Shown piece after piece: positions 34,996 to 46,178 of a stretch of 64,000 nucleotides of DNA. Source of the stretch: Candidatus Eiseniibacteriota bacterium (lineage in GTDB: Bacteria > Eisenbacteria > RBG-16-71-46); NCBI GenBank assembly GCA_963707915.1, contig OY970178.1:2240001-2304000 (forward strand), written 5' to 3'. The translations under genes were made by a program, and so were the position numbers. Position 1 is the first letter of the stretch, and every line of letters begins with the position of its first letter. The notes beneath the pieces were generated by a model that worked only from the letters and a program-made list of their open reading frames with translations, did no database searches and was not told the origin of the DNA.

Positions 34996-35651
34996 TCGGT
35001 CACCCGCGCGTAGACACGCTTGAACTCGCGGGCCGGCATGTCTTCGGAGCCCTCGATCCTCGTGCGGACCACCAGCAGGCTCCCGTCCGCCTCGAGCCGG
35101 ATGCTCTCGGTGACCTTGCCGCCGCGCGGGCCCTGCCGCTGGACCACCAGGGTGTCGCCCTTCCACCCTCCGCTCAGCACCGTCGCGCCGGGCGCGTGCG
35201 CGAGGTCGTCCTTCGCGCCACCCAGCGTGGTGATCTCCTGCAGCACGGTGCCGGTCGAGTCCTCGAAGCTGACGAGCTGGTCGGTGTGCGTGACGTGCAT
35301 CAGGTCGGGCAGCCGCGCGGGACGGCGGGCGGCACCCTCGGGACGCGGGCCCCGCGCACCCTCGCCCCCGGCGCGGCCCACGCCGCCTGGTCCGCCCATG
35401 CCGCGGCGTCCTCCCGGCCCACCGGGCCCGCCCATGCCGCCGGGGCGTCCACCGAGACGCTCGCCGCGCGGCCCGCCGGGCTCCTCGCCCCCGCCCGCAC
35501 CCCCCATCACGTCGCTGCGCTTCGGATCCAGCCGCCACTGCCCGGTCATGTCGGGCACCTGTGCGGCGCCCTGGGCGACGGCGGATGCGCCCGGCCACGC
35601 CACCACCGTGCCCGCGATCAACGCCAGGCCGATCACCGTACGACGGATCAT
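34992..35651 (-). CDS. Secreted hypothetical protein with a Gly/Met/Arg-rich loop
   Basis: Signal peptide, '[15 protein letters not shown]', 'FKRVYAR'; first gene of the efflux operon. Confidence 0.7.
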
Positions 35652-35764
35652 CGTGGTCCTCCTCGCTTCGGGTCCTGGCGCGGGCGGCGGGTTCCGCCGA
35701 CGCGCGCGGCCCACCTGCGGTGCCGCCCGGCATCCGCGCTTCTCGTCCCCAACCTACGCGTCCG

Positions 35765-35783
35765 GTGTGGCAGAGATGTGGCG
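35765..35783 (-). promoter_or_regulatory. OmpR-type tandem operator (GCCACA-N5-GCCACA) for the efflux operon promoter
   Basis: Minus strand CGCCACATCTCTGCCACAC; the -10-like TAGGTT begins 9 nt after the second GCCACA. Confidence 0.7.
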
Positions 35784-35832
35784 TCGCGCTGGCAAATTCA
35801 GACTCGCGCGAGGCCACCAAGGCCCACACTCG

Positions 35833-35851
35833 CGCCACATCTCTGCCACAC
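35833..35851 (+). promoter_or_regulatory. OmpR-type tandem operator for the response regulator promoter
   Basis: Identical 19-mer CGCCACATCTCTGCCACAC; the -10-like TACGCT begins 9 nt after the second GCCACA. Confidence 0.7.
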
Positions 35852-35916
35852 GTCCGGGATACGCTACGATGGTGGAGCGGGGCCGCGGTGGCCCCGCGTT
35901 CGATCCGAGGTCACGG

Positions 35917-36603
35917 ATGGGTCAGCGGATCCTGCTGGTCGAGGACGACGCCCGCATCGCGGACGTCGTCGCCAAGAACCTGGAAGCCGTGGGGTTCGAG
36001 TGCCACCAGTCGCCCGACGGCGGCCGGGCGCTCGCCGACTTCGCGCGCCTCAAGCCCGCCCTGGTGGTGCTGGACCTCGGGCTGCCCGGCCTCGACGGCA
36101 CCGAGGTGCTGCGCCGAATGCGCCGCGAGAGCGACGTGCCGATCCTGATCGTGACCGCGCGCACCAGCGAGAGCGACAAGCTGCTCGGGCTCGAGATCGG
36201 CGCCGACGACTACGTCACCAAGCCGTTCAGCACCGCCGAGTTGGTGGCGCGCGTGCGGGCCCTGCTGCGGCGCTCCAGCGGCACCGTCACCGAGCGCATC
36301 CTCGAGTTCGAGGACCTGCGCATCGATCCGGGCAAGCGCGCCGTCGAGCGCGCCGGGGCGCCGCTGCCGATGACCACCCTCGAGTTCGACCTGCTCTACT
36401 TCCTCGCCTCGCGCCCGGGCCGCGTGTTCAGCCGCGAGGCGCTCATGGAGCACGTCTGGGGCAGCGACCGCCTGGTCGACGACCGCTCGATCGACAGCCT
36501 GGTGAGCCGCGTGCGGCGCAAGCTCGAGACCGACCCCTCGAAGCCGCGCTGGCTGCAGACCGTCTGGGGCGCAGGCTACCGCTTCTCGGAGGCCGCCTCG
36601 TGA
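35917..36603 (+). CDS. OmpR/PhoB family response regulator
   Basis: 'ILLVEDD', 'LDLGLPGLDG', 'GADDYVTKPF', wHTH 'LQTVWGAGY'. Confidence 0.95.
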   Translation: MGQRILLVEDDARIADVVAKNLEAVGFECHQSPDGGRALADFARLKPALVVLDLGLPGLDGTEVLRRMRRESDVPILIVTARTSESDKLLGLEIGADDYVTKPFSTAELVARVRALLRRSSGTVTERILEFEDLRIDPGKRAVERAGAPLPMTTLEFDLLYFLASRPGRVFSREALMEHVWGSDRLVDDRSIDSLVSRVRRKLETDPSKPRWLQTVWGAGYRFSEAAS

Positions 36604-38033
36604 ACCGGCGCGGCCGCAGCCTGTTCTGGACCATCGCCGGCCTGTTCCTGGGTGCGCTGCTGGTCGGCACGCTCGTCCAGGTCCTGCTCGCCGTCGCCGT
36701 GCTGCGCCCGCTCGAGCTGCGCGAGTCGCGCTCGCGCGCCGAGGTGACCGCTTCCTCGCTCGCCGCCGAGATCGCCTCGTCGCCCGGACACTGGAGCGCC
36801 GCCGAGATGCGCGCGCTCATCGAGCGGCACCGCGCGATGCTCGGCCACGGCCCCGGCGTCTTCGGCTACCGCGACGGCGCGGGCTGGCGGATCACCGACC
36901 CGCCGGACCGCGGGCACTTCCTCGACCGCGTGCAGAGCATGGGCCTGCCGAACCGCGAGGGCGGTCCCGCGCCGCGGGAGTTGATCGTGCGCCGCCCGGT
37001 GATGCGCGGAAGCGAGCGGCTGGGCGAGGTCGTGGTGGTGCGGCCGCTGTGGCCGCGTCACGGGCCGTCGGCCTGGGGCTCCTCCACCGCGTTGCTGTTC
37101 GTCCCGATCGCGCTGGTCGTGTCGGTCGTCGTCGGGCTGCTGCTGGTGCGCGTGCTGGTGCGCCGGCTGCGGGCGATCGAGCTGCTCGCGGCGCGCGTCG
37201 CCGAGGGCGACCTCACGGTGCGCATCGGCGACGCCAGCGGGGACGAGATCGGGCGCCTGGCCGAGCGGCTCGACCGCATGACGGAGCGCCTGCTGGACGC
37301 GCGCACCCACGTCGAGGAGACCGAACAGCAGCGCCGGCAGCTCTTCGCCGACATCACGCACGAACTGGCCACGCCGCTGACCTCGATCCGCGGCTACGCC
37401 GAGACCCTGCTCGACCCCGGCGTGTCCGTCTCCGACGAGGAACGCGCCCGCTATCTGCGCGGCGTGCTGGAGGAATCCCGGCGCCTCGACCGCCTGATCC
37501 GCGACCTGTTCGAGCTGGCGCGGCTCGAGGCCGGGGCCTCGCCGCTCGCGCTCGAGCCGATCGACTGGACCGCGCTGTGCCGCAACACCGCCGAACGCTT
37601 CGCGCCGCGCTTCCGCGAGGCGGGCCTGGAGCTGCACTGGCAGGAGCCCGCGGCCGAGGCCTGGATCCACGCCGACGGCCACCGCATGGAGCAGGTGCTC
37701 GAGAACCTGCTGGTCAACACCCTGCGCTACGTGCCGGCGGGTGGGACCGTGGAGGCTTCGATCGCGCGCCCGGCCGGCCGGGCGGACCGCTTCCGCCTGG
37801 TGGTGAGCGACGACGGGCCCGGACTGCCGGACGCCGAGCGGGCGCACGTCTTCGAGCGCTTCTACCGCGCGGCGGGGACGCGCGGCGCCGGCGCCGCGCG
37901 CGACCAGGGCGGCTCGGGGCTGGGGCTCGCGATCGTGCGGGAGATCGTCGAACGGCACGGCGGCACGATCGCCGCCGAGTCGCGCGCGCCGCACGGACTC
38001 ACCATCGTCGTCGAGTTGCCGGCGCGCGCCTGA
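36600..38033 (+). CDS. HAMP-domain sensor histidine kinase
   Basis: Two TMs, HAMP, H-box 'ITHELATPLT', N/G1/F/G2 boxes. Confidence 0.93.
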   Translation: MNRRGRSLFWTIAGLFLGALLVGTLVQVLLAVAVLRPLELRESRSRAEVTASSLAAEIASSPGHWSAAEMRALIERHRAMLGHGPGVFGYRDGAGWRITDPPDRGHFLDRVQSMGLPNREGGPAPRELIVRRPVMRGSERLGEVVVVRPLWPRHGPSAWGSSTALLFVPIALVVSVVVGLLLVRVLVRRLRAIELLAARVAEGDLTVRIGDASGDEIGRLAERLDRMTERLLDARTHVEETEQQRRQLFADITHELATPLTSIRGYAETLLDPGVSVSDEERARYLRGVLEESRRLDRLIRDLFELARLEAGASPLALEPIDWTALCRNTAERFAPRFREAGLELHWQEPAAEAWIHADGHRMEQVLENLLVNTLRYVPAGGTVEASIARPAGRADRFRLVVSDDGPGLPDAERAHVFERFYRAAGTRGAGAARDQGGSGLGLAIVREIVERHGGTIAAESRAPHGLTIVVELPARA

Positions 38034-38213
38034 GGCGCACCGGCGCACGAGCACCGCCGTCCATCCCACCGCGGCGCCGAACCGCGTCCCGATCGGCGTA
38101 CGGCCGGCGACCGCGGTGCCCACCGGCCCGCCGCGCCGCTCGCGGATCGTGCAGGATGCAACGCGTCTCCGCCCGCCGACCCGCGCGACCACGGGGCGCG
38201 GAGAGATTGACCC

Positions 38214-38242
38214 TTGACGGCCGGAGGCTCCGGGACCATCAT
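38214..38242 (+). promoter_or_regulatory. Putative sigma70 promoter of ncRNA copy 1
   Basis: TTGACG-N17-CATCAT, at the same distance from the conserved element as in copy 2. Confidence 0.6.
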
Positions 38243-38246
38243 TGTG

Positions 38247-38425
38247 GGTGACGCCACGACGAAACGAGGTCGCGGCGTGAACCCACCCCACGAATAGAGT
38301 GGGGTCAGGCCGGCACCGGACTCCTTTGCGGGTCCCACGGCCAATACTGCGAACGACGCCGGTTGAGCGCCACCCCGGGACACGGGTCGAACCGAGAGTC
38401 CCCGAGCGACGAGCGATCGGCGTCG
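38247..38425 (+). ncRNA. Unidentified structured ncRNA candidate, copy 1 (179 nt)
   Basis: Intergenic; paralogous to 45026-45204; several hairpins; one compensatory change; upstream promoter; no conserved ORF. Confidence 0.6.
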
Positions 38426-38539
38426 GGTATTTCGGAGCGGGCCGCCCGCGCGGCCGCCGCGGACGCACGCGGCGCGCAGGCGCCGGGCGCCCGCCCCGGG
38501 ACCGGGCGGAGGTGGGGTGCGCGGAGGCGGCCGGCGGAG

Positions 38540-39691
38540 CTACCCGGCGTCCACCGTCCCGGTCACCCGCGGGTTCTCCGCCACCCCCGGGCCGAAGAAG
38601 CGCTTCTCGAGGTCGGCCCACGTCCATTCCGGCTCGCCCGAGGCCGCCAGTTCGTCGCGCAGGCGCGCGATCTCGTCCTGGTACCAGGCCACGACGGGCC
38701 TGCCGATCCGCAGGCCCTCGAGTTCCGCGGCGAGGTCCGCCGGCCGCAGCAGGCACGCCCAGCCGCGGTCGTAGGGGCTCTCGATGACCAGCCGCGGCGC
38801 GTGCTTCAGCTCCTCGTTCACCTGCGTGACCTCGCCGCCCAGCGGCGCCGGGATGCGGACCCGCTCGTCGCCCCGGACGCACGGTGAACAGCGTCCCGCC
38901 GCGCTTCACGCGTGGGTCCCCGGCGCCGGCAGTTCGACGCGGTCGACGGACTTCAGCGCCTTGCGCGCGAAGTCGTCGAGCCCGGTCCACACCTGGCCGG
39001 CCGGATCGATGCGCGCCCAGGCGTGTCCGGGCGAGACGAACGCGCCGCCCGGCACGCAGTACTCACCCGCCGCCACGCTCTCGGCCCGCGCCGGCGCGAC
39101 CACGCGCACCGTCGGTCGCAGCTGGGCCTCGAGCCGCGCCTCGCGCTTGATGAGGAGGCGCGTCGCCAGCGCGACCAACTCCTCCTCGGTGAAGGGCTTC
39201 TGCGCGTAGTCCACGGCGCCGAACTGCATGGTCTCGACCGCGGTCTCGATGGTGCCGTAGCCGGTGATCACGACGACGTCGAGATCGGGGCGCAGGTGGC
39301 GGGCCGCCTTGACCACCTCCACGCCGTCCATCACGGGCATCTTGAGGTCGGTGAACAGGAAGTCGTACGGATGGGCGCGCAGCAGCGTGAGCGCCTCGGG
39401 ACCGCTCTCCACGGTGTCCACGCTGAAGCCGGCGAGCACCAGGATCTTCCGGAAGCTGTCGAGGATGACGGGCTCGTCGTCCACCGCCAGGATGCGCGCA
39501 CGCGCTCCCGGCACCTCCGCGCGCTTCAGGCTCTTCGCCTCGTCGGCGAACGACAGCTGGAGCGCGCTCGTCAGGACGGCCTCGCGCTCGCGTTGCTCGC
39601 GCGCCGTGGCCATGCGCCGGGTGGCCGTGCGCACGATCAGGTCGGCGATGACGAAGAAGACGACCAGCAGGACCATCAGCAGAGCAGTCAT
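38540..39691 (-). CDS. Membrane-anchored REC domain fused to a GcvH-like domain (two apparent frameshifts)
   Basis: TM, 'ILAVDDE...FTDLKMP...ITGY...KPF', then 'GHAWAR...GLDDFA...VELP...APLGGEVTQVNEEL...SPYDRGW'; breaks near 38910 and 38875. Confidence 0.75.
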
Positions 39692-40086
39692 GGCTTCCGT
39701 TCCTCGCGGGCATCCGCGGCCGGGGAAAGCACGCGTCGCACCAGGGTCAACAGCTCCGAATCATCGAAAGGCTTGGGCAGGAACGCCGCGGCGCCCGCGG
39801 TGAGGACGAGTTCCTCCTGCTCGGGCGTGGCGTACCCGGTGGTCATCACGATGGGCAGCTCCGGGCGGCGCGCGCGGATGGTCCGCAACGCGTCGAACCC
39901 GGAGAGCCCGGGGAGCATCAGGTCGCAGATCACGAGACGGCAGCCGGCCAGGGCCGGGTGCGTGAGCGCGGTCTCCGCGTCGGGGACCGCGGTGACCGCG
40001 AACCCCGCGTGCCCGAGGACCAGCCGGATCGCGTCCGACACGACCGGCTCGTCGTCCACGACGAGGATATCGCAGCGGTCCGTCAT
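39688..40086 (-). CDS. Single-domain response regulator
   Basis: 'ILVVDDE', 'CDLMLP', 'TTGY', 'KPF'. Confidence 0.9.
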   Translation of the reverse strand: MTDRCDILVVDDEPVVSDAIRLVLGHAGFAVTAVPDAETALTHPALAGCRLVICDLMLPGLSGFDALRTIRARRPELPIVMTTGYATPEQEELVLTAGAAAFLPKPFDDSELLTLVRRVLSPAADAREERKP

Positions 40087-42100
40087 GACGCGCCCCCCGT
40101 CCCGTCCGGGGGCCCGCCGGCCGGGCGGGCCGCCGCCCGCGGGGCGACCGGCGCGGTCCGCCCCGGGCCCGGTTCGCCGCGCGCGTCGGGCATCGGGACC
40201 GCGGCCGGCGCCTCGGCGCCGGGGGCTCGGGCACCCGGCAGGGGATGCGCAGGGTGAAGCACGTGCCGCGGCCGGGCTCGCTCGCGACCGCGATCGAACC
40301 GCCGTGCCCCTCGACGATGCCCCAGGTCACGGCCAGGCCCAGCCCCGTGCCGCGCGCCCCCTTGGTCGTGAAGAAGGGCTCGAACAGCCGGTCCATCTCC
40401 TCCGGCGCGATGCCGCGTCCCGTGTCCTCCACCTCGATCTGCGCGTACGGTTGCGCCCCGACGGCATCCAGCGCCTCCCAGCGGCTGCCGGGACAGCCCT
40501 TGCGCGCGCACCAACTCGCCGCGCCGAGGCGCGCCACCTGCACGCCGAACATCGGCGCCCCGCATTCCGCGCAGCGCCGCTCCGGCAACTCGAGCCGCGC
40601 GCGGCAGGCGGGGCACAGGTAGGCGGCGATGACGCCCTCGTCGCACGGCTGCGACGCGCGGTGGTTCGCGCGGCCGTACACCGGGTCGAGGTGCACGACC
40701 GCCTCGCGGTCCATGACGCGCCGGATCACGCGGATCGCCGGGACCCCGGCGAGCCGCACGTGCGGGTCGAGCAGGTCGCAGCCCTTCGGGCACCGCGCGC
40801 TGCGGATCGTGGCGTTCCCGCGCGGCGGCACCGCCACCGCGGAGGTGCGCACGCGGATCGAACCGCCCGGCGGCGCGTCGTCGCCCGCCATCGCGTCCGC
40901 CGCGTTGAGCAGCAGGTTCACCACGACCTGCTGGACCTGGTTCTCGTCCGCCGGGACCGGCGCGAGATCGGACGCCAGCTCGAGCTCCACGCCGACGTGC
41001 GCCAGCGCCAGCTGGTTGGTGACGATGGTGCGGGCCCGTCGCACGACCTCGTTGAGGTCGGTCGGCACCCGCTTCGGCGGGGTCTGGCGGGCGAAGTCGA
41101 GGAGCCCGCGCACGATCTCGCGACAGCGCTTGGTCTCGCGCACGATGACGTCGAGGTCCGCGCGGGTCTCGGGGTCGTGCTCCGCGCGCTTCTCGAGGAA
41201 CGAGGCGTAGGTCAGCACGCCGGTGAGCGGGTTGTTGATCTCGTGCGCCACGCCGGCGGCGAGCCGGCCGACCGAGGCGAGCTTGTCGGCCTGGGCGAGC
41301 TGGCGCTGCGCCTCGTTCAGCCGGCTCGTCATGTGGTTGAAGGCGCGCGCGAGGTCGCCGAGCTCGTGCCGCGCCGTCGCGGGCACGGCGGTCGAGAGGT
41401 CGCCCTGGGCGACCCGGCGCGTGCTCGCGATGAGCACCGCCACCGGGCGGAGGATCAGCTGGCGGCTCAGCCACCACAGCAGCGCGCTGCTCGCGGCGAT
41501 CGCCAGCACGGCGAGCAGGATCAGGTTGCGCTGGTCGTGCGCGATCTGGCGGTCGGCCTCGGCGAGCGACAGGTTCACGTCGAGGACGCCGAGCACGGAC
41601 TCCCCGCGCGTGTGCGCGTGGCAGTCGGCGGTCCAGCAGCTCGACTGGTTGGCGATCGGCCGGATCATGCCGAGCACGCGGTGCCCGTCGCCGGCGCGGT
41701 AGATGCGGGCGCGGGCGTGGATCGGCAGCCGCTCGAGCGGGCGCCCGGCCGCGTGGCACGCGTAGCAGGCCTCGGCCCGCTTGTCGACCGCGCGGCCGAT
41801 CTCGGCCTCGTCGGAGGAGAACATCACGGTCCCGGTGCCGTTGAAGAGCCGGACCCGCTCGATGCCCTGCTGCCGGCCGATCGTGACGATCTCGCGGTGG
41901 ACCGCCTCCCGGCGGTTCTCGAGCATGTCGTGGTAGGTGCTGCTGGCGATGGTCTCGCTCAGCTGGTCGGCGCTGCGGGTGAGCTGGGCGATGAGCGCCC
42001 CCTGGTGGGCGCGCAGGATGATGACCGACATGACGCCGATCACCGCGGCCGTGACCGCCGCCACGCCCAGGATCGCCAGCGTCCCGATGCCCGCCTTCAA
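40083..42100 (-). CDS. Sensor histidine kinase with a haem-motif periplasmic domain and a Cys-rich insert (C-terminal frameshift)
   Basis: TM, 'CYACH' and 'CWTADCH', TM, HAMP, 'VAHEINNPL', N-box, Cys-rich insert, 'EDTGRGI...FEPFFTTK..GTGLGL'; break at 40241-40244. Confidence 0.85.
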
Positions 42101-43280
42101 GGCTTCGCTCCCCGCGGCGCCGGGACCGGACGGCCCGCGGTCGCGCGGCCCGGCCCGGGGAAGACGGGCAGGAAGCGCACCGCGAGCGCGAAGGCGGCGA
42201 ATCCGATGGCGACCAGACCGACGGACACCACGACCTCCATCCAGGTCGGCGCGTAGCGCGTGCCACTGGCCCGTTCGAGACCGGTCACGCTCACGTTGAG
42301 CCGGTGCATGATGAAGCCTAGCACAGCGAAGGCCGCGCCGGTCACGAGCCCGGCGGACGAGTTGCGGACGCGCGGCCAGGCCAGCAGCGCGACCGGCAGC
42401 ACGACGCCCGAGCCCGAACTCGACCAGGAACATCCGTCCCTCGTAGGTCGGGTTGCAGAGCGAGCGGCAGCGCGCCGCTGCGCGCCAGCGCCTGCAGGCG
42501 CAGCACGCCGAACACCGCGAGCACCACGACCATCGCCCGTCCGAGCGGCTCGAGCAGGTCCAGCTCGAGCCGCCGGCCGAAGGCCCGGCCGCTCAGGTGC
42601 GACTCGACGATGATCATCCCGAGCCCGGCGCCGATGGCCGAGACGTAGAACAGCAGCGGCAGCGTCGGCGAGTACCAGAGCGGGTGCAGCTTCTGGGGCA
42701 CGATCAGGTAGAGCGACCCCAGCGAGGACTGGTGCAGCGTGGAGAGCAGCACGCCCGACGATCACCAGCGGGGTGTTCACCCCGTGCAGGATCCGGCGCG
42801 CCCGCTCGAAGCCGAAGCGCTCGAGCACGAGGGGCACGAACTCGAGCGTCAGCACCGTGGTGTAGAGCATCACGCACCAGGCGACCTCGAACATCACCGA
42901 GTGCGGGTTCCAGAACACCATCGCGTGCCAGATGCGCCACGGCTGGCCGAGGTCGAAGAGCAGCGCGAACACCACGAACAGGTAGCCGAGGAACCCGGTC
43001 AGCACCGTGGGGCGCACGATCGGCTCGAAGCGACGGATGTGGAACAGGTGCACGACCGCCATGAGGTGAACGCGCCGGCCGCGAGCCCGACCCCGCAGAG
43101 GATGTCGAAGCCGATCCACAGGCCCCAGGGAACGCGGTCGCTCAGGTGGGTCGTCGCCCCGAGGCCGCGCGTGAAGCGCAGCACCGCGACGACCAGGAAG
43201 AGGCCGAGGAGCGCGAAGAAGACCGCGGTCCAGAACCCGATGCGCGGCCGGCGGGGCGCGGCTTCGAGCGTGGCGCTCAT
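42097..43280 (-). CDS. NrfD/HybB/HmcC-type membrane subunit (four apparent frameshifts)
   Basis: 'TTHLSDRVPWGLWIGFD..CGVGLAAG', 'FDLGQPWRIWH', 'SVMFEVAWC', 'LSTLHQSSLG', 'HRLNV' distributed over several frames. Confidence 0.8.
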
Positions 43281-44060
43281 GGTCCCGGCCGCTCGTCGCG
43301 GCGCGGCCCGGCGGGCGGCTCGACCGGGGCGTCGGGGGCCTCGCTCCGGCGGACCTCCGCGCGGCGGCTGGTGATCCAGTGGATGCCGAAGAGGGACACG
43401 GCCGCGACCGTGACGATGTCGGGCAGCTGCGAGAGCACCTGCCAGGTGAGCGCGGGCAGCGGCTCGCGCGGCAGGCCGTCCGGCAGGCCGAGTCGCGCGA
43501 ACGGCACCCCGGCCAGCAGGAGCACCGCCGTGCCGCCGGCTTCGTCGAGCCCGTAGATGCGGTCCACGTAGCGCGCCGGGGCGTGCGCGATCCGGTCGCG
43601 CGCCTCGCGAATCAACGCCGCGCGCTCGCCGCTGAGGGTCGCGCCCGTCGGGCAGACCTGGGCACAGGCCACCGGCTGGCCGGCGGCGAGCCGCGGTGCG
43701 CACATCACGCACTTGCCCACCAGCGGGACCGGACGGTCCCACTGGTACTTCGGGACGTCGAACGGGCACGCCATGATGCAGTAGCGGCAGCCGATGCACA
43801 GCTTCGAGTCGTAGATCACCGGCCCCGCGGCCGTCTTCTTCATCGCGCCCGACCGGGCACACCGAAGCGCAGGTCGGCGTGAGGCAGTGCATGCAGAGGC
43901 GGCGCACGTTCACCCCGGCCCGTCGCTCGACGACGGTCCAGGTGTAGGCCGTGGTCTGCGGCTCGATCCGGTGGGGCAGGCCGTTCTGCTCCTTGCACGC
44001 CGCCGAGCAGGCGCCGCAGCCGATGCAGCGCGTCGAGTCGAACAGGATCCCCCGGCTCAC
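43277..44060 (-). CDS. 4Fe-4S dicluster protein, HybA/HmcB-like (one apparent frameshift)
   Basis: CIGCGACSAAC, CMHCLTPTCASVCP, CIGCRYCIMACP, KCVMC...CAQVCP, C-terminal TM; break at 43848-43850. Confidence 0.85.
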
Positions 44061-44776
44061 GGCCGGGCCCCGGGCTCGGCGTGGCAGCGCGAACAGGCGT
44101 CCGGGTCGGCCGCGGCGAAGGCCTGCTTGCCGTCGTGGCAGGCCCCGCACGCCGCGCGCTCGTGCATCCCGCCACCCGGCCGGGGAGACGTGAAGGTCAT
44201 CTTGAAGGGCTTCGGATGGCATCGCGCGCAGCCGCCCGCGCCGAGCAGGTGCGGCTCGTGCCGGAAGGTGACCACCCCGGGGGAGGCGTCGCTCGCGGGA
44301 TAGGCATGCGGTCCCGGCAGGCGGCGGGCAGCGGTCCCGGCCAGGTCCCGGGCGCCCGCGGCGGTCAGGCCGGGCAGAGGACCGGTGTGGCAGGTGCGGC
44401 ACTTGCCGGAATCCAGGACCCCGAACGCCTGCTTCCCGTCGTGACACATGCCGCAGCCCCCTCCAGCGTTCATGTCCCGATGCGCCTGGGCTGGCCCCCT
44501 GCGCAGGATGGGGAACGGTCGAAGATGGCAGCCCGTGCACCGGTTCCCGGCGAACGCCACGTGGCTCTGGTGGCTGAAGACCACCGCGCTATCCGAGCCA
44601 ACGACAAAGTCATAGACGATGTCGGCGGGCAGGCGCAGCGCCGCGGGGGCAACTCGCGCCGAATCGCGCGCGCCCCGCTCGGCGCCGGGCGCGACCGCTG
44701 GACCCATGAATTGCGCTGCGAGCAGGACCGCCCATGCGCACCAGGCACGCAGGATGCGGCAGGAGGGTGAACCCAA
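44057..44776 (-). CDS. Hexahaem c-type cytochrome (two c7-like modules)
   Basis: Six CxxCH motifs; repeated 'VVFSH/VTFRH...C..CHDGKQAF'; TTG start with a GGAAGGAG RBS. Confidence 0.88.
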   Translation of the reverse strand: MGSPSCRILRAWCAWAVLLAAQFMGPAVAPGAERGARDSARVAPAALRLPADIVYDFVVGSDSAVVFSHQSHVAFAGNRCTGCHLRPFPILRRGPAQAHRDMNAGGGCGMCHDGKQAFGVLDSGKCRTCHTGPLPGLTAAGARDLAGTAARRLPGPHAYPASDASPGVVTFRHEPHLLGAGGCARCHPKPFKMTFTSPRPGGGMHERAACGACHDGKQAFAAADPDACSRCHAEPGARP

Positions 44777-44813
44777 GGAATCTCCTTCCCGACCAGGATG
44801 AGTATTACTACGG

Positions 44814-44842
44814 ATGGTAGCGTCCCTTTACTTCCGTGTGAA
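44814..44842 (-). promoter_or_regulatory. Putative sigma70 promoter of the redox cassette
   Basis: Minus strand TTCACA-N17-TACCAT in an AT-enriched stretch. Confidence 0.5.
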
Positions 44843-44992
44843 GTGACAACTCCGAGTCGGGGCCGATGAGCCGTGCCGGGCCCCGCCAGGGCCCGGCGGC
44901 AAGGAGGATCACGGGGTTCCCCGGGGGTGAACCGGCCTCGAGCGTCCGGCGGCGACCGCGCCGGAGCCGATCGGCAGGTGGCAGAGAACCCC

Positions 44993-45021
44993 TTGACAGC
45001 CCCGGGGGGCGGAACAATGCT
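44993..45021 (+). promoter_or_regulatory. Putative sigma70 promoter of ncRNA copy 2
   Basis: Consensus -35 TTGACA, then N17 and AATGCT. Confidence 0.62.
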
Positions 45022-45025
45022 CTTT

Positions 45026-45204
45026 GGTGACGCCACGACGCAGAGATTTCGGCGTTAGGTCACCCCCCACGTTTCGAGTGGGGTCGGGCCGGCAGCGGGC
45101 TCCCGTGCGGGCCCCTCGGCCATCACTGCGAACGACGCCGGTTGAGCGCCACCCCGGGACACGGATGCATTGGAGAGTCCCTGAGCGACGAGCGATCGGC
45201 GTCG
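45026..45204 (+). ncRNA. Unidentified structured ncRNA candidate, copy 2 (179 nt)
   Basis: Paralogue of 38247-38425 sharing identical blocks of 40 nt and 22 nt and the same stems. Confidence 0.6.
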
Positions 45205-45314
45205 ACTATTGGGGGCGCACCGCCGGGAGCATCCCCCGGGGATCCCCGGCCACCACGGGGGCTCGCAGCTGACGCCGGTCCGCGCCCCGCGGGGGCGCGC
45301 CGCTCTGCCGCCGG

Positions 45315-45884
45315 TTACAGCCCCAACTCGCCCCGGATACCCCGAAGCGCCTCGAGCGTGGTGGCGATGTGCGAGTCGAGCTCGACCCCCAGCTCGGCCG
45401 CGCCCCGGACGATGTCCTCGCGGCTCACGTTCCGGGCGAAGTCGGCGCGCTTCATCTTCTTCCTGACCCCCGCCACCTCGACCTCGTCGAGCGACTTGTG
45501 CGGCGTGATGAGCGCGCAGGCCACCAGGAAGCCGCACAGCTCGTCACAGGCGTAGAGCACCCGCGCCATCGGCGTCCCGCGCGGCACCCCGGTGTGGGTC
45601 GCGTGACCGAGCACCGCCTGGCAGATGTCCTCCGGCCAGCCCAGCCCGCGCAGCACCTTCACCCCCTCGAGCGGATGGCGCTCGGCGTCGGGGTGACGCT
45701 CCCAGTCGAAGTCGTGGACCAGGCCGGCCAGTCCCCAGCGCTCCTCGTCGGCGCCCAGCAGGCGCGCGTGGTGACGCATCGCGGCCTCGACCGCCAGGCA
45801 GTGCTTGCGCAGGTTCGGGTTCTGGATCCACTCGTGCAGCAGCGCGAGCGCCTGCTCGCGGGTGGGAAGGGCGGGGTCGCTCAC
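45315..45884 (-). CDS. HD-domain (HDIG-type) metal-dependent hydrolase
   Basis: 'LRKHCLAVE', 'LVHDFD', 'LGHA', 'ACDELCG'. Confidence 0.88.
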   Translation of the reverse strand: MSDPALPTREQALALLHEWIQNPNLRKHCLAVEAAMRHHARLLGADEERWGLAGLVHDFDWERHPDAERHPLEGVKVLRGLGWPEDICQAVLGHATHTGVPRGTPMARVLYACDELCGFLVACALITPHKSLDEVEVAGVRKKMKRADFARNVSREDIVRGAAELGVELDSHIATTLEALRGIRGELGL

Positions 45885-45938: not shown

Positions 45939-46178
45939 TCACTTGTCGTCGAAGAAGGCGCGGTTCTTCTCGATGTAGTCCACCCACTTCTCGGGCACGC
46001 TGCTGTCCGGGAAGATGGCCTGCACCGGGCACGCGGCCTCGCACGCCTGGCAATCGATGCATTCGTCGGGATGGATGTAGAACTGGTCCTCGCCCTCGTA
46101 GATGCAGTTGACCGGGCAGACCTCGACGCAGGACTTGTCCTTCACGCCGATGCAGGGCTCCGCGATGACGAACGGCAT
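45939..46178 (-). CDS. Ferredoxin (7Fe/8Fe type)
   Basis: 'EPCIGVKDKSCVEVCPVNCI', 'CIDCQACEAACP'. Confidence 0.93.
   Translation of the reverse strand: MPFVIAEPCIGVKDKSCVEVCPVNCIYEGEDQFYIHPDECIDCQACEAACPVQAIFPDSSVPEKWVDYIEKNRAFFDDK

Follow-up and report, generated by a model that had tools for sequence, protein, structure and literature searches.

In a 64,000-nucleotide (nt) window of the genome of a Candidatus Eiseniibacteriota bacterium (GenBank assembly GCA_963707915.1, contig OY970178.1, positions 2,240,001 to 2,304,000; positions below are those of the window), a 179-nt intergenic element is present twice, as copies A and B, and the sequence evidence points to a real, new family of independently transcribed small RNAs (sRNAs). 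Each copy is probably the gene for a structured sRNA of ~185 nt, read on the plus strand from its own promoter, that would act in trans as a regulator and share its last hairpin, P4, with a convergent operon. A first-pass annotation, made from the letters of the window, had proposed a paralogous pair of independently transcribed structured non-coding RNAs of no known class, and this proposal is supported by the promoters, by covariation and by negative searches of Rfam. The copies are direct repeats that align without gaps and are identical at 146 of 179 positions. Both begin GGTGACGCCACGACG and finish GAGCGACGAGCGATCGGCGTCG, as the first-pass annotation gave them, and pairwise alignment returned the 40-nt core it had noted (38346-38385 = 45125-45164) as the longest identical run.

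The genome is a single contig of 3,623,634 bases, in which a BLAST search with copy A gave 29 matches at E<=10. The real ones are the two copies (E 1.9e-89 and 1.1e-46), and the other 27 are 14-31 nt long with E>=0.3. Since there are only two real copies in the whole genome (3.62 Mb), and most relatives have one copy at the syntenic place, a dispersed repeat of the REP or MITE type was rejected; dozens of promoterless copies, which the first-pass annotation had named as the mark of such a repeat, were not seen. Both copies also look non-coding, in line with the earlier remark that they share no conserved open reading frame (ORF). Of the six frames, a single one is open in both copies, and the GC content by codon position is flat (0.64-0.73), compared with 0.9-1.0 at third positions in the neighbouring genes; a protein-coding reading of the elements was rejected on this flat profile.

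Four hairpins, P1 to P4, are supported by compensatory changes among homologous sequences. P1 joins GACGCC..CGAC to GUCG..GGCGU, P2 is a 6-bp stem with a loop of 7-11 nt, P3 is a hairpin in three parts whose internal loops are conserved, and P4 is a long hairpin of the terminator type. Conservation is high in the P2-P3 loops and linkers; in the interior of P4 it extends only to the genus and its nearest relative, and elsewhere P4 is an ordinary, well-paired hairpin. The stems listed in the first-pass annotation were recovered by single-sequence folding as well as by alignment folding, and the compensatory exchange of A-U for G-C that it had noticed in P3 is real (pair 80/94). Minimum free energy folds of the single sequences reached -89.4 kcal/mol for copy A (z -4.09) and -84.1 kcal/mol for copy B, for which the signal is weaker (z -1.40).

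Covariation was assessed in three alignments: A6, with 29 distinct sequences; A7, with 23 divergent sequences; and A8, with 49 sequences, which was made with MAFFT and fitted to no structure. In A7, 92.2% of the cells were paired versus 79.5% in shuffles, and 31 of 50 pairs changed on both sides versus 17.6 in shuffles, with none of 500 shuffles as high; slid controls of the same alignment gave 31-47% paired cells. The corresponding share of paired cells was 94.9% versus 92.9% in A6, where 13 of 54 pairs changed on both sides, and 96.2% versus 90.4% in A8, where 12 of 20 did. Because related sequences can beat shuffles without any structure, the slid controls and the number of pair types weigh more in this assessment.

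Two more elaborate structural proposals have weak support or none. A pseudoknot between the P1 loop (GCAR) and the P3-P4 linker (YUGC) is suggestive in a subset of sequences, with 73.3% of cells paired, but it fails in copy A and is not established; one of its positions holds A-U 6 times, G-C 6 times, G-U 4 times and U-A 2 times in A6, and is unpaired in 11 sequences. Mutually exclusive folds are possible through the nearly invariant GACG/CGUC boxes of P1 and P4, but covariation gives them no support: the native pairing is found in 85/91 and 81/88 cells compared with 69/88 and 73/87 for the alternative pairing, and at varying boxes it is the native partner, not the alternative one, that covaries. 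Judged by eye, a GGA decoy of the CsrA type was rejected, given that the P2-loop GGA shows no conservation and that the GGA count is about that expected from composition, and the same by-eye look led us to claim no K-turn or other named motif.

Both copies are preceded by a TTGAC(G/A)-N17-hexamer arrangement, as had been claimed, although the gap between the hexamer and the RNA start is 4 nt rather than 5 nt, a trivial difference. The -10-like hexamers of both copies have A at position 2 and T at position 6, and an AT-richer AGATT patch lies directly upstream of the copy A promoter. A promoter consensus scan called 2 sites in 9.5 kb versus 0.2 +/- 0.4 in shuffles; the copy A promoter was among the calls, and the copy B promoter, which departs from the -10 rule of the scan, was not. 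TTGAC is found 29-32 nt before the model start in 49/49 aligned homologues, a constancy that strongly reinforces the original promoter-based inference, and it is preceded in homologues by an AT-richer patch (AGATT, AAATT, ATTTT). Outside the genus, 13 of 22 sequences have a hexamer with at least four of six matches to TATAAT exactly 17 nt after TTGAC, and -10-like hexamers there include TGGAAT, TGAAAT and TCGAAT (pattern T..AAT/T..GAT). The comparison shows a promoter of the sigma-70 type, with the predicted start at or just after 38247 and 45026.

At the other end, P4, with its GC-rich base (CGACGCC...GGCGTCG) followed by a T-rich tail, looks like the intrinsic terminator of the RNA itself. 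A run of at least four T is present in the tail of 25/49 homologues (14/22 outside the genus, where runs reach 7 T, and 11/27 inside). A simple terminator scan of P4 plus tail gave no call. Conservation is bordered by the -35 region on one side and by the T tail on the other.

The size of the elements had brought 6S RNA to mind in the first-pass annotation, which named a strong Rfam hit as the result that would remove their novelty. Searches with Rfam 15 gave no match at the gathering score in the 64-kb window, no match at E<=10 at either copy within 38000-45500, and no match at the RNA position of eight divergent homologue loci, such that neither 6S RNA nor any other family matches either copy. 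The true 6S RNA is encoded at another place in the genome (RF00013, 71.2 bits versus a cut-off of 46.4), RF01685 has no match, and the signal recognition particle (SRP) RNA (60.5 bits), the RNase P RNA (254.9 bits) and the transfer-messenger RNA (tmRNA) all have their own genes elsewhere. No housekeeping RNA is missing, and there is therefore none for the two-copy RNA to stand in for. The statements that the element is not a tmRNA, SRP RNA or RNase P RNA and does not form a 6S rod hold, the latter also on the covariation, which supports four local hairpins. A known riboswitch aptamer was rejected on the lack of Rfam matches. A cis-regulatory leader in a 5´ untranslated region (UTR) was rejected as well, since the next gene downstream is encoded on the other strand in 26/32 loci of the genus or of g4 type and in 18/23 other-genus loci. 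No published description of a regulatory RNA from Eisenbacteria was found in a literature search.

BLAST among 61 genomes detected the element in 7/7 same-genus genomes and in a single further genus. Scanning genome records for a sequence pattern returned seven stretches, at four loci from Candidatus Eisenbacteria, two from uncultured bacteria and one from Terriglobales; the last label may be a taxonomic misassignment of a metagenome-assembled genome. A looser pattern scan of metagenome contigs yielded 74 loci, of which 23 match the covariance model R1 and the 51 without a match were dropped as chance; a search of locus L076 with R1 likewise gave no match. Full-length R1 matches are present in 34/89 genomes of the family, representing 16 of its 28 genera. 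A second covariance model, R2, built from 23 divergent sequences, matched 29/59 genomes of the family versus 0/91 genomes of 16 other families in a sample of the phylum; E-values from both models are rough. Five near-complete genomes of match-less genera do have the HD-domain gene that commonly faces the RNA, and a search beside this gene with filters off gave at best an unconvincing 10.8 bits (E 0.059). As far as searched, the RNA family is confined to one family of Candidatus Eisenbacteria.

Each copy points at the 3´ end of a convergent gene ~110 nt away. Copy B faces an HD/HDIG-domain gene, which is paired with an fdxA-type ferredoxin gene, and copy A faces a gene for a response-regulator receiver with a GcvH-like domain. 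Of the loci from other genera, 18/23 have an HD orthologue (71-80% identity) downstream of the RNA and on the other strand, and 16/23 have a ferredoxin gene, which is beyond the HD gene wherever both occur; two of the five other-genus loci lacking an HD match have no downstream room. Among the 32 loci of the genus or of g4 type, some of which may come from the same organisms, the HD gene is within 133 nt in 20 and is replaced by the receiver-GcvH gene in six; in the remainder, the HD gene is further off in two (1488 and 2822 nt, opposite strand), an asparagine synthase gene is faced in one, and there is no room in three. In several loci a mere 13-23 nt separate the stop codon of the facing gene from the RNA end, too few for a separate terminator. 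The upstream neighbour varies and can be response regulator and histidine kinase (RR-HK) genes, a block with a cytochrome c7 gene (c7 block), a DnaE2-type polymerase gene or a TonB-like gene; the histidine kinase upstream of copy A is also the upstream neighbour in loci of other genomes. These arrangements show the ancestral position of the predicted RNA as convergent with the 3´ end of the fdxA-HDIG operon. We also noted an extra gene of ~140-230 aa after the HD gene, on the same strand and facing the RNA, in eight other-genus loci (L142, L149, L141, L146, L138, L134, L132 and L137); the predicted protein has a WHE(F/Y)Y...AGTAAVTL-type stretch, probably membrane-spanning, in seven of the eight.

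Single-copy relatives have RR-HK, RNA and HD-fdxA in that order. In the window and in one other genome, the 6.6-kb c7 block and a second RNA copy are found between RR-HK and HD-fdxA, and the two copies bracket the block because in this genus the second copy converges on the last gene of the block. The same c7 block adjoins the RNA in other genomes, and in one genome of the genus the far end of the block is without an RNA copy. Between the two genomes with two copies, identity is 91% for copy A and its counterpart and 73% for the B copies, and the end branch in the tree is 0.29 for copy B versus 0.079 for copy A. In both two-copy genomes (window 45024-45214; L038:1491-1682) the copy adjoining HD-fdxA is the fast-evolving one. 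The order of the duplication cannot be stated, since 15/26 inner branches of the tree of genus copies have <80% support.

The coordinates of the predicted RNAs, their promoters and tails and the neighbouring genes are collected in Table 1.

Table 1. Features at and around the two RNA copies, in window positions.
Feature	Position	Strand	Basis and remarks
Histidine kinase ORF	35196-38033	+	Pfam; ends 180 nt before the copy A promoter
Copy A promoter (predicted)	-35 TTGACG 38214-38219; 17-nt spacer; -10-like CATCAT 38237-38242	+	Sequence, consensus scan
sRNA copy A (candidate)	38247-38425	+	179 nt; fold, alignment fold, model R1 214.6 bits, covariation
Copy A parts	P1 38251-38278; P2 38285-38305; P3 38308-38342; linker 38343-38353; P4 38354-38425	+	
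Tail after P4, copy A	38426-38435	+	T-containing GGTATTTCGG; likely 3´ end
Response-regulator receiver + GcvH-like domain gene	38540-39691	-	Converges on copy A
Block between the copies	39761-44776	-	Cytochrome c7, 4Fe-4S protein, NrfD-like membrane protein, HAMP/HisKA/HATPase histidine kinase; Pfam
HAMP/HisKA/HATPase histidine kinase gene	from 39761	-	Pfam
Cytochrome c7 gene	44057-44776	-	Pfam
Copy B promoter (predicted)	-35 TTGACA 44993-44998; 17-nt spacer; -10-like AATGCT 45016-45021	+	Sequence
sRNA copy B (candidate)	45026-45204	+	179 nt; fold, model R1 172.3 bits; more diverged paralogue
Copy B parts	P1 45030-45057; P2 45064-45084; P3 45087-45121; linker 45122-45132; P4 45133-45204	+	
Tail after P4, copy B	45205-45214	+	Weak T tract ACTATTGGGG
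HD/HDIG-domain protein gene	45315-45884	-	189 aa; Pfam HD 1.4e-08, NCBIfam HDIG 4.1e-09; converges on copy B
fdxA-type ferredoxin gene	45939-46178	-	79 aa; first gene of the fdxA-HDIG pair

The ferredoxin matches two FdxA models of NCBIfam (3.5e-32 and 1.5e-24), in each case below the cut-off of the model. The receiver-GcvH gene has an in-frame TGA (38906-38908), which may reflect a misassembly of the long-read genome or a broken gene; intact orthologues have 386 aa, and ~18 codons around the TGA (38860-38960) mismatch them, as if two indels had shifted the frame. The encoded protein is an unusual fusion in which the GcvH-like domain (lipoyl/biotinyl-type) is the output domain. Its gene is the last of the c7/two-component block and is conserved, with an orthologue at L041:2710-3867. 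The 4Fe-4S and NrfD genes (42097-44776, minus strand) look fragmented, with weaker, partial Pfam matches, and tblastn aligned them to a relative in pieces, whereas orthologues match the full Fer4_11 and NrfD models; further frameshifts or errors in these genes are possible. A promoter-like TTCACA-17-TACCAT (44814-44842, minus strand) immediately precedes the cytochrome c7 gene and diverges from the copy B promoter, ~150 nt away. Within a histidine kinase gene, 41258-41330 form a near-perfect palindromic hairpin of 73 nt that weakly matches a microRNA model on both strands (27 bits versus a cut-off of 100), almost certainly by chance.

The choice of strand in the first-pass annotation is backed by the promoter elements, the T-rich tail, an excess of G.U pairs and folding outside the genus, and on these features the RNA strand is the plus strand. 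G.U cells exceed A.C cells by 90 to 15 of 1441 in A6 and by 68 to 24 of 931 in A7, although both alignments were fitted to a plus-strand model and their pair and G.U counts are biased toward this strand. At the base of P4, two G.U pairs on the plus strand covary with G-C and A-U (pairs 128/191 and 130/189), and outside the genus the plus strand folds better than its complement in 21/21 sequences, by a mean of 13.2 kcal/mol. It is very unlikely that the functional strand is instead the minus strand, as a 3´-UTR structure or terminator region of the convergent operons with an incidental promoter on the plus strand. Such a role would fit with the position of the element, always just after the stop of a minus-strand gene, with the better folding of the reverse complement in 18/22 sequences inside the genus (mean 5.65 kcal/mol), and with the invariant middle of P4, where three C.A/A.C oppositions on the plus strand would be G.U pairs of an 8-bp helix on the minus strand. 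It leaves no function for the TTGAC fixed in 49/49 homologues or for the hexamer and the AT patch, which all lie beyond the structured part, and the T runs, like the G.U excess and the out-of-genus folding, are on the side of the plus strand. We read the mixed strand signal as a P4 hairpin that may be used on both strands, ending the RNA itself and serving the facing gene as its terminator or 3´-end hairpin. A reading at the DNA level, in which the copies are recombination or integration scars around the inserted 6.6-kb block and have no RNA function, is highly improbable. Direct repeats do bracket a block that single-copy relatives lack, a layout expected from one crossover with a circular intermediate that carried one copy, but single-copy homologues are kept across 16 genera and show compensatory changes in four helices, the Pfam matches of the block include no integrase or transposase, and the copies have diverged by 18% yet have kept the fold; an event of this kind may account for the origin of the second copy but not for the nature of the element. 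The chance that the family is a divergent member of a housekeeping class (6S, SRP, RNase P or tmRNA) is close to negligible: ~180 nt, a strong promoter and pairs of paralogues do recall 6S RNA, but neither the Rfam results at E<=10, nor the presence of all four RNAs elsewhere in the genome, nor the local hairpins in place of a rod agree with it.

For the trans-acting sRNA that we consider probable, transcription would proceed on the plus strand from the sigma-70-type promoter, starting at or just after 38247 or 45026, and the RNA would fold into the three conserved hairpins P1-P3 followed by the long P4, at which the transcript would end. The product would be a stable, abundantly made regulator, the conserved P2-P3 loops and linkers likely serving to bind a partner, protein or other, rather than as a simple seed. 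P4 would probably be a two-way terminator common to the RNA and the convergent operon, and this sharing would explain why the neighbourhood with fdxA-HDIG is kept. Duplex energies between the RNA and the fdxA start region, the only candidate target tried, were at background in 15 genomes (z -1.40 to +1.74), and whole-length duplex energies are uninformative in GC-rich RNA; no extended antisense match to copy A was found by BLAST in the whole genome. Besides the folding of the reverse complement inside the genus, the oppositions in the middle of P4 and the bias of the fitted alignments, several points weigh against a trans-acting sRNA. No target, seed or partner protein was found, and the conserved adjacency to one operon is unexpected for an RNA acting purely in trans. 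The T tail is weak within the genus, with runs of 1-4 T, and the window copies have 3 and 2 T. The public sequencing runs for 38000-45400 comprise 24 DNA runs, with small shares, and no RNA run is listed for this stretch, such that the transcript is a prediction, as are its ends and abundance.

The fixed orientation is better explained by a cis-antisense control, a reading that we regard as doubtful, in which P1-P3 would sense a ligand or protein and set termination at P4, with read-through producing RNA antisense to fdxA-HDIG or, for copy A, to the last gene of the c7 block. Convergence with fdxA-HDIG has been kept in 18/23 other-genus loci and 20/32 loci of the genus or of g4 type while what lies upstream varies, the facing gene has its stop 13-130 nt away, the P2-P3 loops and linkers are highly conserved, the T tract is weak in the genus, and the near-invariant GACG/CGUC boxes could swap partners (69/88 and 73/87 cells). 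The covariation of these boxes, however, follows the native partners (85/91 and 81/88 cells) and not the alternatives, the strong T tract in most genera suggests efficient termination, and no known aptamer in Rfam matches. In addition, one genome of the genus has the c7 block with no copy facing it, and the HD gene is kept in genera without the RNA. Spelled out as a sensor-controlled antisense device, in which P1-P3 would bind a metabolite or protein and tune a P4 read-through that silences fdxA-HDIG, and the duplicate would do so for a respiratory block that resembles a quinone reductase and has its own two-component system, this idea seems unlikely to us.

Trans-encoded bacterial sRNAs have their own sigma-70 promoter and a Rho-independent terminator. 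The Eisenbacteria RNA resembles them in being intergenic and lineage-restricted, in its conserved promoter, in its hairpin and U-rich tail and in having paralogues, but it is larger and far more structured than sRNAs of the seed type and has a fixed convergent neighbour; we know of no RNA chaperone or target in Eisenbacteria. With 6S RNA (RF00013) it shares a length of ~180 nt, a promoter of its own and possibly the occurrence of two paralogues, but it has no match to the model and forms four local hairpins instead of a rod with a central bubble. Antisense and other non-coding RNAs can be controlled by riboswitches, as for the B12-controlled AspocR and EutX/Rli55, and here too a terminator comes after a structured 5´ domain and the transcript is aimed at convergent genes; unlike in those systems, there is no known aptamer and the alternative pairing is without covariation support. 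Bidirectional intrinsic terminators occur between convergent genes, and P4 is like them in lying between convergent units, in forming a hairpin on both strands and in its A/T-rich flanks, but 110 nt of conserved structure and a dedicated promoter come before it, and a mere terminator would need neither. Among orphan structured non-coding RNAs, the raiA-motif RNA is likewise ~200 nt long, has conserved loops and junctions in addition to helices, is transcribed on its own and has a function not evident from its neighbours, whereas the Eisenbacteria RNA is in no Rfam family and has a far narrower range of hosts, one bacterial family. A paper on the raiA-motif RNA is PMC11706538.

To our knowledge, Eisenbacteria have no cultured member. 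The well-delimited, covariation-supported family described here can join libraries of RNA families, offers a way to read the grammar of promoters and terminators in the phylum, and is testable in metatranscriptomes. If it is merely a lineage-specific sRNA without an identified target, it would be a useful yet ordinary addition. If the sensor-controlled antisense device is true, it would be a new sensing domain tied to redox and electron-transfer genes in an uncultured phylum. The position facing the ferredoxin-HDIG operon, together with the duplication around a respiratory block, offers a concrete hypothesis in which the RNA would be linked to electron-transfer genes.

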